From Myxococcota bacterium (GTDB lineage: Bacteria > Myxococcota > JACRCW01), in the NCBI GenBank assembly GCA_040752415.1, contig JBFMGU010000124.1, positions 1-30,728 on the forward strand: a stretch of 30,728 nt of DNA, written 5' to 3'. The notes beneath the pieces are model-generated. The model was not told the origin of the DNA, did not search any database, and saw only the letters and a list, made by a program, of their open reading frames with translations. Both the position numbers and the translations under genes were made by a program. Shown piece by piece: positions 8,439 through 11,909 of this stretch (position 1 is the first letter of the stretch; each line of letters begins with the position of its first letter).

Positions 8439-8486
8439 GCCCGATGTTGGCCCCGGCGGGAGGGATGGCCTAGCGTCCCCGCCGTG

Positions 8487-9332
8487 ATGAGACGAATGGC
8501 ATGTGTGGGTTTGGCGCTGGGGCTCTGGGCATGTCCGCCCCCGCCGGGTGGCTCCTCCGATGACAGCCCGTACTTCAACCGCAGCGTGACGAGCTCGTCG
8601 TCGTCGGCCGCCTCCAGCGCGTCGGCGAGCACATCCTCCGGCTCCAGCTCCAGCGGTGGCGCCGCGTCGTCGTCGTCCTCGTCGTCGTCGGGTGGGGCCG
8701 CGGTGGGCTCGTCCTCGTCGTCCGCGAGCTCCTCGTCGTCGTCCAGCTCCTCGTCCAGTTCGTCGGGTGTCACGTCTTCCAGCAGCAGCTCCACGGGCGG
8801 CGCCGGGACGTCGTCCGGCGGTGATGTGTGTGAGGCGGTGGTGGAGGTGCATCCACCGGTGAGCAGTCCGCACGTGGCGGCGTGCTCGGTGGTCAACTAC
8901 GAGACCAACCCGCCCACGTCGGGACCGCACTACGGGCAGTGGGCCGCGTACAAGACGTACACCTCACCCGTGCCGCGCGGTTACTACGTGCACGCCATGG
9001 AGCACGGCGGCGTGGTGATTGCGTACAACTGCCCGGACGGCTGCGCGGACGACGTGGACGCGCTGGAGGACTTCATCGACGGTCGCCCCACCGACCCGGC
9101 GTGCCCGGCCTCCGTGGGCAAGCGCATCATCCTCACGCCCGACCCCCTCCTGGATGCACGTTTCGCCGCTGCGGCGTGGGGCGCGTGGCTCAAGGCGGAC
9201 TGCGTGGACCTGGACGGGTTGGCGCTGTTCCTGGACACGTATTACGCGCACGCGCCGGAGAACATCTGCGGCACCGGCCTGGACCCCACCAGTCCCGACG
9301 CCGGTGTCCCCGAGAACTGCGGGGAGCCCTGA
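8487..9332 (+). CDS. DUF3105-family lipoprotein with a poly-Ser linker
   Basis: Lipobox LWAC; long Ser-rich spacer; NPPTSGPHY, VHAMEHGGVVIAYNC and AAAAWG motifs of DUF3105. Confidence 0.85.
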   Translation: MRRMACVGLALGLWACPPPPGGSSDDSPYFNRSVTSSSSSAASSASASTSSGSSSSGGAASSSSSSSSGGAAVGSSSSSASSSSSSSSSSSSSGVTSSSSSSTGGAGTSSGGDVCEAVVEVHPPVSSPHVAACSVVNYETNPPTSGPHYGQWAAYKTYTSPVPRGYYVHAMEHGGVVIAYNCPDGCADDVDALEDFIDGRPTDPACPASVGKRIILTPDPLLDARFAAAAWGAWLKADCVDLDGLALFLDTYYAHAPENICGTGLDPTSPDAGVPENCGEP

Positions 9333-10215: not shown

Positions 10216-11040
10216 ATGGGCACCACCTCCGCCGCTCCCTCGGACCACGTGCTGATCGAGGCCGCGCGCGCGGGCGACCGTCGTGCGCTGGAGACGCTGC
10301 TGGCGCGGCACCAGGACACCATCTACCGCTTCGGGGTGCGCATGTGCGCCAATCCCGACGACGCGCAGGACGTCCTGCAGGACACCATGCTCGCGGTGGC
10401 GCGCAACCTCCACAGCTTCCGCGGCGCGTCGTCGTTCTCCACGTGGGTGTACGCCATTGCGCGTAGCTTCTGCGCCAAGCGGCACCGGCCGGGGCGCTCC
10501 GTGCGGGCGGCGGATCTCGACGAGGAGGCGGCGGCGGAGGGCGTGGCGGATCCGCGCCGGGGACCGGAGGATGCGCTGCTGGAGCGTCGACTTCAGCGGT
10601 CCCTGGAGGACGCCATTGCCGCGCTGGAGCCCATGTACCGCGAGACGTTGCTGCTGCGTGACGTCGAGGGACTCAGCGCGGCCGAGACCGCGGAGGTGCT
10701 GGGGCTGACGGTGGAGGCGGTGAAGAGCCGGTTGCACCGCGCGCGCGTGGCGGTGCGGGACGCCATGGCGCCGGCGCTGGGGACTCTCGACGAGACGCCG
10801 CCCACCGCCGCCTGCCCGGACATCCTCACCACGCTGTCCCGTCACCTGGAGGGGGAGATCTCACCGGCGCAGTGCGCGCAGATGGAGCAGCACGTGCAAG
10901 GTTGCACGCGGTGTCGCACGGCGTGTGATTCGCTCAAGCGCACGCTGGCGTTGTGCCGGGCCGTCCCCGCCGGGCCCGTGCCGGAACCGGTCCAGCTCAA
11001 GGTGCGCCAGGCGCTGTGGGAGCTGCTGGCCCGGCCCTGA
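10216..11040 (+). CDS. ECF RNA polymerase sigma factor with a fused C-terminal zf-HC2 (ZAS-type) domain
   Basis: Region 2 DAQDVLQDTML...FRGASSFSTWVYAIARS; region 4 LLLRDVEGLSAAETAEVLGLTVEAVKSRLHRAR; C-terminal C...HVQGCTRC (HxxxCxxC); GGAG RBS. Confidence 0.92.
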   Translation: MGTTSAAPSDHVLIEAARAGDRRALETLLARHQDTIYRFGVRMCANPDDAQDVLQDTMLAVARNLHSFRGASSFSTWVYAIARSFCAKRHRPGRSVRAADLDEEAAAEGVADPRRGPEDALLERRLQRSLEDAIAALEPMYRETLLLRDVEGLSAAETAEVLGLTVEAVKSRLHRARVAVRDAMAPALGTLDETPPTAACPDILTTLSRHLEGEISPAQCAQMEQHVQGCTRCRTACDSLKRTLALCRAVPAGPVPEPVQLKVRQALWELLARP

Positions 11041-11100
11041 CGCGCTCTTTTTTCCTGAATCCTCCGGCGACCCGCTGGCTCCCATCCCGTGGAGGCAGTC

Positions 11101-11187
11101 GTGGACCTTTGGACGTCGCTGGCCGTGCTGACGGTCTGGATCCTGTTGCAGGCCCTCATCCTCCCCAAGATGGGAGTGGGGACCTGA
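11101..11187 (+). CDS. Small membrane protein MDLWTSLAVLTVWILLQALILPKMGVGT (28 aa); UGA may encode Sec, extending the ORF to 11265 (54 aa)
   Basis: GGAGG at 11091-11095, GTG at 11101, one hydrophobic helix, GC3-rich codons; TGA 11185-11187 followed by an open frame to TGA 11263-11265; not in the ORF track. Confidence 0.7.
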   Translation: MDLWTSLAVLTVWILLQALILPKMGVGT

Positions 11188-11226
11188 ATGGTGCCGAAGC
11201 CGCGCCGTGATGCGCGGAAGGAACCA
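11188..11226 (+). promoter_or_regulatory. Candidate bacterial SECIS element
   Basis: Immediately 3' of the UGA: lower stem TGGTGCC(11189-95)/GGAACCA(11220-26), upper stem CCGCGC(11200-05)/GCGCGG(11212-17), loop CGTGAT with G at position 2, loop 18 nt from UGA. Confidence 0.5.
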
Positions 11227-11278
11227 CGAAACAACGAGGACGACCAACCCGGTTGCATGGATTGAGATGAGGAAGAAG

Positions 11279-11578
11279 ATGACGGGAATCCTGGAATGGC
11301 TCACCGGCGGGCCCAAGGTGGATGCGCGGGAGCTGGTGCAGAAGGGCGCGTTGCTGCTGGATGTGCGCACGCGGGAGGAATACGCGCAGCGTCACATCCC
11401 GGGCGCGGTGAACGTCCCCGTGCAGGAGCTGGCGCAGCGGGTGGCGGAGGTGGGCAGCAAGACGCGCACCGTGGTGGTGTACTGCCGGAGCGGTCAGCGC
11501 AGCGGCGTGGCGCGCGACCTCCTGCTCCGCGCCGGATTCCAGGACGTGGTGAACCTGGGCTCCATCAACAACTGGTGA
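11279..11578 (+). CDS. Single-domain rhodanese (PspE/GlpE-like sulfurtransferase)
   Basis: LLDVRTREEYAQRHIPGAVNVP and VVVYCRSGQRS active-site loop; start 11279 (alternative 11267). Confidence 0.92.
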   Translation: MTGILEWLTGGPKVDARELVQKGALLLDVRTREEYAQRHIPGAVNVPVQELAQRVAEVGSKTRTVVVYCRSGQRSGVARDLLLRAGFQDVVNLGSINNW

Positions 11579-11662: not shown

Positions 11663-11761
11663 TCAGCCCGGCAGCGTCACGAGGTTCCACAACGCGTAGG
11701 CCACATTCAGCACGAACAGGGCGGCACAGATCCACGGCGTGAAGTCGGTCTCGTCTTCCAT
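11663..11761 (-). CDS. Small single-pass membrane protein MEDETDFTPWICAALFVLNVAYALWNLVTLPG (32 aa)
   Basis: GGGAG RBS 7 nt before ATG 11761; acidic N-terminus plus one TM helix; GC3-rich codons; not in the ORF track. Confidence 0.55.
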   Translation of the reverse strand: MEDETDFTPWICAALFVLNVAYALWNLVTLPG

Positions 11762-11909
11762 GGCGCGCTCCCGGTTTCGCCCCAGGAACGCCCTTGGTGA
11801 CGCGATCCTTCCCACCCGCTCCGTTTGCCGCGGAGAAGTTGCGTCGTTGTCACGCCCGACTCACCAAGGCGTCACACGCCGCTCCAACCGTTGGGCGTGA
11901 CGTCGAGGA

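Follow-up and report, generated by a model that had tools for sequence, protein, structure and literature searches.

Does the UGA codon at positions 11185 to 11187 of contig JBFMGU010000124.1 end a short membrane peptide, or is it read as selenocysteine (Sec)? The contig, a stretch of 30,728 nucleotides (nt) from a Myxococcota bacterium (assembly GCA_040752415.1), is referred to here as the window. The codon lies on the forward strand between a gene for an extracytoplasmic function (ECF) sigma factor and a rhodanese gene, and a preliminary description of this DNA had proposed that a 54-residue membrane-anchored selenoprotein is encoded there. Homologue comparison, hairpin conservation and the presence of Sec machinery all support that reading. 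Positions 11101 to 11265 (forward strand) very probably form one gene for a 54-residue membrane selenoprotein, and we have high confidence that the product truly is a selenoprotein and that its family is uncatalogued. What the comparison of homologues establishes is that the UGA is recoded, that a Sec insertion sequence (SECIS)-type hairpin follows it, that the tail beyond it is translated, and that the protein belongs to a family with Sec and cysteine (Cys) members. The family also proved to be large and to extend over many phyla, which the preliminary description had not foreseen.

An in-frame UGA within a predicted membrane microprotein

The gene has the parts expected of a translated frame. 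The Shine-Dalgarno sequence GGAGG (11091 to 11095) stands 5 nt 5′ of a GTG start codon (11101 to 11103), and 28 codons ending in LPKMGVGT lead from there to the TGA, just as had been described. The GTG aligns with the ATG of a homologue in genome G001 and, across 50 family members, with an M-D/N start; an in-frame GTG farther upstream, at 11089, is backed by no homologue. In this first part, which encodes the predicted transmembrane helix (residues 3 to 23; 11107 to 11169), G or C occupies the third position in 26 of 28 codons. The motif P-K-M-G-V-G-T (11164 to 11184) directly precedes the putative Sec, residue 29, and matches the family consensus L-P-[RK]-[LMF]-G-[VI]-x-T.

A two-tier stem-loop resembling a bacterial SECIS (bSECIS) element follows the UGA (11189 to 11226), and both of its proposed tiers appeared in the centroid fold. 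The outer tier pairs TGGTGCC (11189 to 11195) with GGAACCA (11220 to 11226), and the inner stem pairs CCGCGC (11200 to 11205) with GCGCGG (11212 to 11217) around the apical loop CGTGAT (11206 to 11211; CGUGAU in RNA). Counted from the U of the UGA, the outer tier begins at 4 nt, the inner stem at 15 nt and the loop at 21 nt. Beyond the UGA the frame stays open, as predicted, for 25 further codons (11188 to 11262), encoding a charged, disordered and predicted-cytoplasmic tail whose third residue from the C terminus is Cys (TGC, 11254 to 11256). It ends at a TGA (11263 to 11265), and a single nt separates this stop from the first ATG of the rhodanese gene. An open frame of 25 codons is unremarkable in 70% G+C DNA, and the significance of hairpin and frame comes entirely from the comparison with homologues.

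Homologues carry UGA or a Cys codon at the Sec site

A DNA-level search of 60 relatives returned, apart from the rhodanese gene, a single 47-nt match; it covers the TGA and hairpin and comes from G001, a genome of the same family as the locus genome (G000) and of another genus. The homologue in G001 has other neighbours, a Ser/Thr kinase gene and an adenylate cyclase gene. It reads MDL...LPRLGVRT, TGA, and then MAPNPRRDAR...GCG, and its hairpin is kept with one loop base changed. With a profile built from this pair of sequences, 82 of 401 genomes in the phylum yielded 86 matches at E ≤ 1e-3. An in-frame TGA was present in 85 of them, and one, in genome G067, had no stop. The expectation that homologues would carry TGA or TGC/TGT here, and never TAA or TAG, was borne out, as none of the 86 matches had TAA or TAG as its sole in-frame stop. 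Carriers, counted at E ≤ 0.1, made up 17 of 18 genomes in family f4, 55 of 67 in f15 and 7 of 20 in f6; the 25 matches among 172 genomes of f11 are read as chance because all were weak (E ≥ 0.006). A search of the locus genome found no second copy there.

The 50 best Myxococcota loci were translated. Start codons were ATG in 43 and GTG in 7, and the Sec site lay 27 to 31 codons from the start. At the internal codon, TGA stood in 49 loci and TGC in 1; the terminal stops were TGA in 28, TAG in 18 and TAA in 4. At the terminal-stop frequency, 49 TGA codons out of 49 would have a probability of 4.6e-13, a figure that is overstated because the genomes are related. The residue after the Sec site was Met in 23 loci, Ala in 15, Gly in 11 and Val in 1. 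Since an Ala or Gly codon follows the UGA in at least 26 of the 49, a second open reading frame (ORF) with its own start is impossible in those loci. The single TGC locus, in G067 (L079), is a continuous 54-residue ORF reading ...LPKLGIPT-C-MSGAC...; it corresponds to the database protein P0001, named "hypothetical protein" by NCBI, and P0002 is a second Cys form.

A profile of the 50 members was then scored against 1.84 billion representative proteins and matched 1858 of them at E ≤ 1e-3 and 30 at 1e-10. We fetched 52 representatives. Cys occupied the site in 32, mostly as T-C-M-S-G-A-C, and the other residues found were W in 9, G in 3, R in 3 and S in 2. The remainder were two stumps of 29 residues, whose last residue is the T ahead of the UGA, and an unrelated repeat protein. 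The W and G entries presumably reflect TGA codons translated under genetic codes 4 or 25 by gene callers. The only name given to family proteins in the databases was "hypothetical protein", and with the 29-residue stumps this agrees with the earlier suggestion that ORF callers miss the gene. The Arg and Ser entries are P0011, P0013, P0021, P0027 and P0083. P0021 is nearly identical to the TGA-form locus L169, with R in place of U and with C where L169 has W. P0083 is a 198-residue gene call that joins an N-terminal part resembling ArsC/low-molecular-weight phosphatases to a family member; two neighbouring genes were probably run together in this call, which hints at an arsenate reductase neighbour.

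Two pattern searches extended the comparison to other phyla. A metagenome scan limited to TGY at the site returned 19 stretches, 17 of which (all except L220 and L233) were true members with Cys at the site. A degenerate DNA pattern, Q-x2-[VI]-L-P-[RK]-[LMF]-G-[VI]-x-T and then TGH, was run on one genome per species and matched at least 120 stretches. All 80 loci fetched from this search had TGA at the site although TGC and TGT were allowed, a figure that is no census of Sec against Cys forms. The terminal stop was again TGA in 43 of these 80 Sec loci. Among the matches listed, TGA forms came from Desulfobacterales, Syntrophales and two cultured Desulfobacterota (Geobacter sp. OR-1 and Geomobilimonas luticola JCM 17780), from Acidobacteriota (Thermoanaerobaculia, Holophagales), Planctomycetota, Chloroflexia, Nitrospiraceae and Spirochaetes, from two cyanobacterial metagenome-assembled genomes, and from Polyangiales and Haliangiales. 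One match, L087 (G194:C5), has two TGA codons, and its tail ends ...PGA, TGA, TGC; the second TGA may be a recoded UGA before Cys and not a stop.

The hairpin accompanies the UGA and is lacking in Cys forms

Conservation of the hairpin had been put forward as a second test of the Sec reading, and both its position and its pairing proved to be kept. A register-free script found a contiguous stem of 6 bp or more, including 5 or more GC pairs, with its loop starting at +19 to +25, in 45 of the 49 Myxococcota Sec forms; 4.3% of 2000 random 50-nt windows taken from these loci did equally well. For the locus under study the script chose another stem, and CCGCGC/GCGCGG (loop at +21) is the stem in family register. 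Stem sequences vary among members (CCGCGC, GCTTGCCG, CCGATCC, GGCCCCG, GCGTGCC and others). The preliminary description had also pointed to a G among the first two bases of the apical loop; this base is present in the CGUGAU loop here and in 48 of the 49 Myxococcota Sec forms.

MAFFT misregistered the stems when the hairpins were aligned, and a covariance model was used instead, alongside the register-free script. The covariance-model alignment held 46 matches, 3 of them off-target, and missed 6 members. Within it 95.6% of cells were paired, 7 of 7 pairs had compensatory changes and 0 of 500 shuffles did equally well, with slid controls at 32 to 50% paired; the alignment was fitted to the model structure and includes the 3 off-target rows, so that these counts are biased towards the structure.

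Sec and Cys forms differ in what follows the codon. Of the 80 Sec forms from other phyla, 72 had a stem of 5 bp or more and a G as first or second loop base, compared with 2 of 13 Cys forms (the distinct metagenome members with enough 3′ sequence). The mean fold z was −1.64 for Sec forms and 0.02 for Cys forms, and the mean stem length was 6.4 and 4.2 bp, respectively. Judged by these comparisons, the hairpin travels with the UGA and not with the peptide. In the bSECIS model, as given in a 2026 review, a G stands at the first or the second position of the loop and 16 to 37 nt separate the UGA from the loop (PMC13188914). The loop of this locus (+21, CGUGAU) and the loops of the family fit the model in that form.

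The tail is translated and the Sec site is predicted to face the cytoplasm

Conservation of the downstream frame, a further prediction, was evident from Cys codons at set places in the tail. An in-frame tail Cys was found in 45 of 49 Myxococcota members and in 77 of 80 from other phyla. Exactly five residues after Sec (U+5), Cys was present in 14 of 49 and 59 of 80 members, respectively, compared with 0 to 1 in the other two frames. In 25 of 49 Myxococcota members, one of the last three codons also specified Cys, again compared with 0 to 1 in the other frames; this second signal was absent from the other phyla (6 of 80 in frame versus 1 and 5 elsewhere). Comparison of the three frames thus indicates that the tail is translated. 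The distal Cys foreseen for the product is present in this locus, at U+23, but its placement is not general, and most family members instead have a Cys 5 residues after Sec.

AlphaFold2, run on the 50-sequence alignment, modelled one helix at residues 3 to 23 (predicted local distance difference test score 86 to 90) and a tail with scores of 42 to 65. In the Myxococcota alignment, M1, Q17, P22, G25 and U29 were invariant and W13, L16, L21, V26 and T28 nearly so. Among 101 sequences of other phyla and Cys forms, the motif residues L, P, G and T and the U/C site were invariant. Q17, in the middle of the helix, was invariant in alignment A7 and near-invariant (at least 90%) in the wider alignment A8; such conservation of a mid-helix Gln suggests helix-helix contact and homo-oligomerisation.

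The N-terminal flank of the helix averages 2.9 residues with 0.22 Lys plus Arg, and the 19-residue stretch that begins at the Pro has 3.1 Lys plus Arg on average. The C-terminal flank was the richer in Lys and Arg in 128 of 128 members. By the positive-inside rule of membrane topology, this distribution predicts an N-out/C-in orientation, and Sec would then lie at the cytoplasmic membrane face.

Sec machinery is present in carrier genomes

The locus genome (11 Mb, 520 contigs, 96.8% complete) contains the machinery for Sec insertion that the proposed reading called for. Its tRNA-Sec scored 73.8 bits and was called tRNA-SeC with anticodon tca by ARAGORN, SelA matched at 1.5e-127, the wing domain of SelB was matched as well, and SelD is present. 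A single in-frame TGA in the selD gene (G000:C171:7395-8327; L011) makes SelD a selenoprotein too in this genome. A gene for a PrxQ-like peroxiredoxin (G000:C390:16205-16621; L242) likewise has one in-frame TGA, and its product is probably a Sec-peroxiredoxin.

SelA was found in 296 of the 401 genomes of the phylum, a tally that takes in one unpublished genome, G195, which bears on no other result given here. It was present in 76 of 81 carriers compared with 220 of 320 non-carriers (odds ratio 6.9, with related genomes that are not independent). The five carriers without SelA are incomplete assemblies with tRNA-Sec and/or SelB. Nine of 10 carriers from other phyla had SelA and the tenth had SelB. 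The genome with the Cys form, G067, also has SelA.

Genomic context of the locus and of the family

The gene for the microprotein lies 60 nt 3′ of the ECF sigma gene (10216 to 11040, forward strand), whose product was recognized by Pfam models Sigma70_r2, Sigma70_r4_2 and zf-HC2 and by NCBIfam ECF sigma models. The zf-HC2 domain is fused at the C terminus (ZAS type) and carries HxxxCxxC, which places a sigma factor and a redox-sensing anti-sigma-like module in one protein; the same architecture occurs beside a family member at L070. On the other side, a single-domain rhodanese gene (11267 to 11578, forward strand) encodes a PspE/GlpE-like sulfurtransferase (Pfam Rhodanese, 1.4e-20; NCBIfam PspE, 3.2e-18). 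It may start at ATG 11267 or at ATG 11279, the latter preceded by GAGGAAG, which leaves 1 or 13 nt after the microprotein gene, and the two genes are probably cotranscribed. No sigma-70-type promoter was found between 10900 and 11700 with a scan tool that does not cover ECF-type promoters. The annotation of this locus is corrected to a probable operon of sigma factor, micro-selenoprotein and rhodanese.

Two other features of the window were recorded. Between the rhodanese gene and an IMP dehydrogenase gene, a short ORF on the reverse strand (11663 to 11815; 50 residues from the first GTG, 32 from an internal ATG) has a hydrophobic C-terminal half and may be another unannotated membrane microprotein. 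A DUF3105 protein gene (8484 to 9332, forward strand) encodes an N-terminal region of about 100 residues composed almost only of Ser, Gly and Ala.

Immediate same-strand neighbours at 29 Myxococcota loci included DUF302 genes (6 loci), ECF sigma genes (3, this locus included) and thioredoxin genes (2). Flavoproteins beside two of the 29 loci resemble TIGR03169 and type III SQR at scores below the cut-offs, and at one Myxococcota locus a MauE gene lies about 1.1 kb away on the opposite strand. For the other phyla, 150 of 157 neighbour ORFs from 76 loci were scanned. ArsR-type regulator genes stood upstream on the same strand at 6 loci (five at 0 to 9 nt, one at 308 nt), ECF sigma genes overlapped the 3′ end at 6, and a YkuD gene lay downstream at 5, four of them with a TlpA-like redoxin gene upstream. 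DUF302 occurred at 3 of the 76 loci and thioredoxin, hybrid-cluster protein and YgbA at 2 each, the last two sharing one locus. CsoR, Fur, rhodanese, YeeE, rubrerythrin, an ArsP permease with an HMA domain and C_GCAxxG_C_C were found once each. The theme common to these neighbours is thiol, sulfur, metal or oxidative stress.

Some neighbours form arrangements of their own. At L058, L059, L062, L074 and L078, a conserved protein of 314 to 320 residues, without a match in Pfam or NCBIfam, is encoded about 530 nt upstream on the same strand; a DUF302 gene lies between at 3 of these 5 loci, which suggests a three-gene cluster of this protein, DUF302 and the selenoprotein. In G001, the homologue is directly followed by a 63-residue ORF for a two-helix membrane protein with C-x3-C-x-P (L031:1598-1786, forward strand), which sits inside a longer GTG-start frame and presumably resembles DUF6132. 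DUF6132 is also found beside L065.

Proposed function and alternative explanations

In the explanation that we favour, a ribosome would start at GTG 11101 and make the single transmembrane helix first. The stem-loop would recruit SelB with Sec-tRNA at UGA 11185, Sec would be inserted, and translation would go on through the 25-residue charged tail to TGA 11263. The protein would lie N-out/C-in, with Sec at the cytoplasmic membrane face right after LP[RK]xG[VI]xT. Sec and the tail Cys (at U+5 in most members, near the C terminus here) would make up a dyad for redox chemistry or for binding thiophilic ligands. An oxidant, sulfane sulfur or a soft metal would drive the dyad into a selenenylsulfide, and a thioredoxin-type reductant would reset it. 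The gene would belong to thiol, sulfur or metal stress regulons, standing here between the ECF sigma/ZAS gene and the rhodanese gene. The redox-dyad mechanism is a tentative proposal to which we give less than even chances, and any particular substrate is more doubtful still. A bolder and improbable extension would make this the smallest known selenoenzyme: a membrane-anchored selenol of about 50 residues at the lipid-cytoplasm interface that reduces lipid hydroperoxides or accepts sulfane sulfur or soft metals, as a bacterial counterpart of GPX4/SELENOK. The ECF sigma/ZAS, ArsR or CsoR protein encoded next to it would read out whether the selenol is oxidized, and the micro-selenoprotein would act as both detoxifier and membrane redox sensor in at least 8 phyla.

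Several observations weigh against this account or parts of it. Taken alone, the hairpin of this locus is within chance (z of −1.15, with 24 of 200 shuffles folding at least as well, and z of −1.4 in a second test), and the pair counts of the family alignment carry the bias described above. Some database homologues have Arg or Ser at the Sec site, either as natural substitutions or as errors. SelA is common in the phylum, and its co-occurrence with the family there is therefore only moderately informative. The tail evolves fast: differences by codon position were 23/13/29 over 6 independent pairs (P = 0.049) and were not significant beyond the hairpin, so that the apparent constraint on the tail is carried mainly by its Cys. 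A universal U/C dyad is impossible because the tail is devoid of Cys in 4 of 49 Myxococcota members and in 3 of 80 others, and the member encoded by this locus lacks the Cys at U+5. Finally, neighbourhoods are heterogeneous, with no neighbour above about a fifth of the loci, which makes the functional reading weak.

Among the alternatives, the one that survives best accepts the selenoprotein and dispenses with the redox dyad. The protein would be a membrane binder or hand-over site for soft metals and metalloids (Hg, Cu, As), selenium or sulfane sulfur, or else a small membrane partner or sensor that modulates the adjacent ECF, ArsR or CsoR regulators. The regulator genes speak for it, namely the closely spaced ArsR-type genes and the more distant sixth, the single CsoR-type gene, and the ECF sigma genes that overlap the family's 3′ end in other phyla or adjoin it in the Myxococcota. 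So do the ArsP permease with its HMA domain, YeeE and rhodanese among the neighbours, and the conserved mid-helix Gln with the helix-helix contact that it suggests. Thioredoxin, redoxin, rubrerythrin and hybrid-cluster protein neighbours point equally to redox stress, though; no metal-binding family model was matched, and none of the neighbours that favour a binder or sensor is frequent. We regard this explanation as possible and on the doubtful side.

Far less probable is that the UGA is an ordinary stop ending a 28-residue microprotein, with the hairpin serving as a regulatory or terminator-like RNA or as a device coupling translation to the rhodanese gene and with the tail untranslated. Such a stop would suit the prevalence of UGA among the terminal stops of the family, the 29-residue products in gene-caller output, the weak codon-position bias of the tail and, in this locus, the ATG directly 3′ of the TGA at 11185 to 11187. 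Yet the internal codon was TGA in all 49 stop-bearing homologues that were translated, although TAG or TAA ends 22 of the 50 tails, and homologues with a Cys codon read through into the same tail motif (CMSGAC versus UMSGAC). A restart behind the UGA is precluded in the loci with an Ala or Gly codon there, Cys codons recur in this frame at U+5 and, in the Myxococcota, among the last three codons, with 0 to 1 in the other two frames, and the hairpin is lacking where the codon specifies Cys. A terminator-like role is further contradicted by the sequence 3′ of the hairpin, where there is no T-run and where a scan found no terminator-like site.

A UGA decoded by a near-cognate tRNA (for Trp or Cys), or reassigned from its function as a stop, would also yield a full-length protein, in this case one without Sec, and the database entries with W or G at the site could be taken in its favour. 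We consider this highly improbable. TGA is a stop in these genomes because the same genes end in it (28 of 50 and 43 of 80 loci), Sec machinery was found in every carrier checked, and the hairpin agrees with the bSECIS model (PMC13188914). A chance ORF with a hairpin in G+C-rich intergenic DNA, where long spurious ORFs do arise and where the single-sequence fold z is weak, is refuted by conservation (1858 representative proteins, with invariant residues across many phyla) and sits poorly with the Shine-Dalgarno sequence and the G+C-rich third positions of the helix codons, and we give it next to no credence.

Comparison with catalogued families and known selenoproteins

Pfam searches at E ≤ 10 with the locus protein, the 50 members and 15 further members gave chance-level hits only. 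NCBIfam release 20.0 was searched with 18 queries (the locus protein at full length and truncated at the UGA, its G001 homologue and 15 more) and returned no selenoprotein model at E ≤ 10; all hits were at chance level (E of 0.049 to 0.23, far below the cut-offs), PrxQ at E = 0.075 for L100 among them. A profile search of solved structures yielded only a chance 12-residue match to glutathione transferase (E = 0.16). The nearest cluster in the ESM Atlas is an unnamed "hypothetical protein" with a score of 0.88, which is a lead only. No published description of the family was found in a full-text literature search, supplements aside. Table 1 of the 2026 review, with its 119 prokaryotic selenoprotein families, contains no single-helix microprotein and no LP[RK]xG[VI]xT-U motif (PMC13188914). 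Likewise, none of the 11 selenoproteins that Zhang et al. (2006) give for Anaeromyxobacter dehalogenans is of this type.

The family thus appears to be absent from some twenty years of selenoprotein inventories, including the 119 families of that review (PMC13188914). It is widespread, with 1858 representative clusters in the profile search, yet is modelled in neither Pfam nor NCBIfam, and it would be the first micro-selenoprotein with a single membrane helix to be described from bacteria. The case also illustrates how size cut-offs in ORF screens hide recoded genes. With one helix, one Sec and one Cys, the protein offers a minimal, synthesisable system for selenol chemistry at a membrane surface and for bSECIS function.

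Among bacterial selenoproteins, the MerT-like transporter, YeeE/YedE, SaoP, TsoA (LULAxC) and KCU-star share with the family a UGA-encoded Sec and a downstream bSECIS element, and some are membrane proteins or very small (PMC13188914). They differ from it in that none of them is a single-helix protein with LP[RK]xG[VI]xT-U, and their Pfam and NCBIfam models were matched at E ≤ 10 by neither the locus protein nor 24 other members.

A second likeness is to PrxQ/BCP peroxiredoxins (P-x6-Cp-x4-Cr). In the main subgroup of the family, LP[KR]xGxST-U-xxxAC, the spacings from Pro to the reactive residue and from there to the second Cys are the same, as is seen when LPKMGIST-U-MRNAC of one member is set beside YPRDDTPG-C-TREAC of the locus genome's own PrxQ genes. 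Thioredoxin genes are also found beside some family members. Both spacings are shared by 59 of 80 and 14 of 49 members, with the Thr displaced, and the member encoded by this locus has no Cys at +5. The Thr is at −1 here and at −3 in PrxQ, and 54 residues are too few for a thioredoxin fold. Homology to PrxQ was rejected as unsupported: hhalign placed U on the peroxidatic Cys at a probability of 0.9% and E = 0.06. Membership was rejected as well, as no AhpC-TSA or Redoxin hit was obtained in Pfam and the model is a helix with a disordered tail. The resemblance is best described as an analogy of spacing and not as common descent or membership.

A third concerns the YgaP-type DUF2892 domain, which we take to be PF11127, to end in G-[IV]-x-T-C and to be tied to rhodanese. 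Here too a rhodanese gene follows the microprotein gene. The DUF2892 domain has two helices compared with one in the microprotein, and it was not among the Pfam matches of the 65 members at E ≤ 10.

The closest parallels in overall design are SELENOK and SELENOS, small proteins with one transmembrane helix and a disordered cytosolic tail that bears Sec; in SELENOS a Cys partner allows a selenenylsulfide to form. No such Pfam family was matched at E ≤ 10. The two are eukaryotic and have Sec near the C terminus, in contrast to the bacterial family, in which Sec directly follows the helix and the SECIS element lies in the coding region. What they share with the family is the plan of a small single-pass protein with a disordered tail, here a predicted one, that bears Sec.

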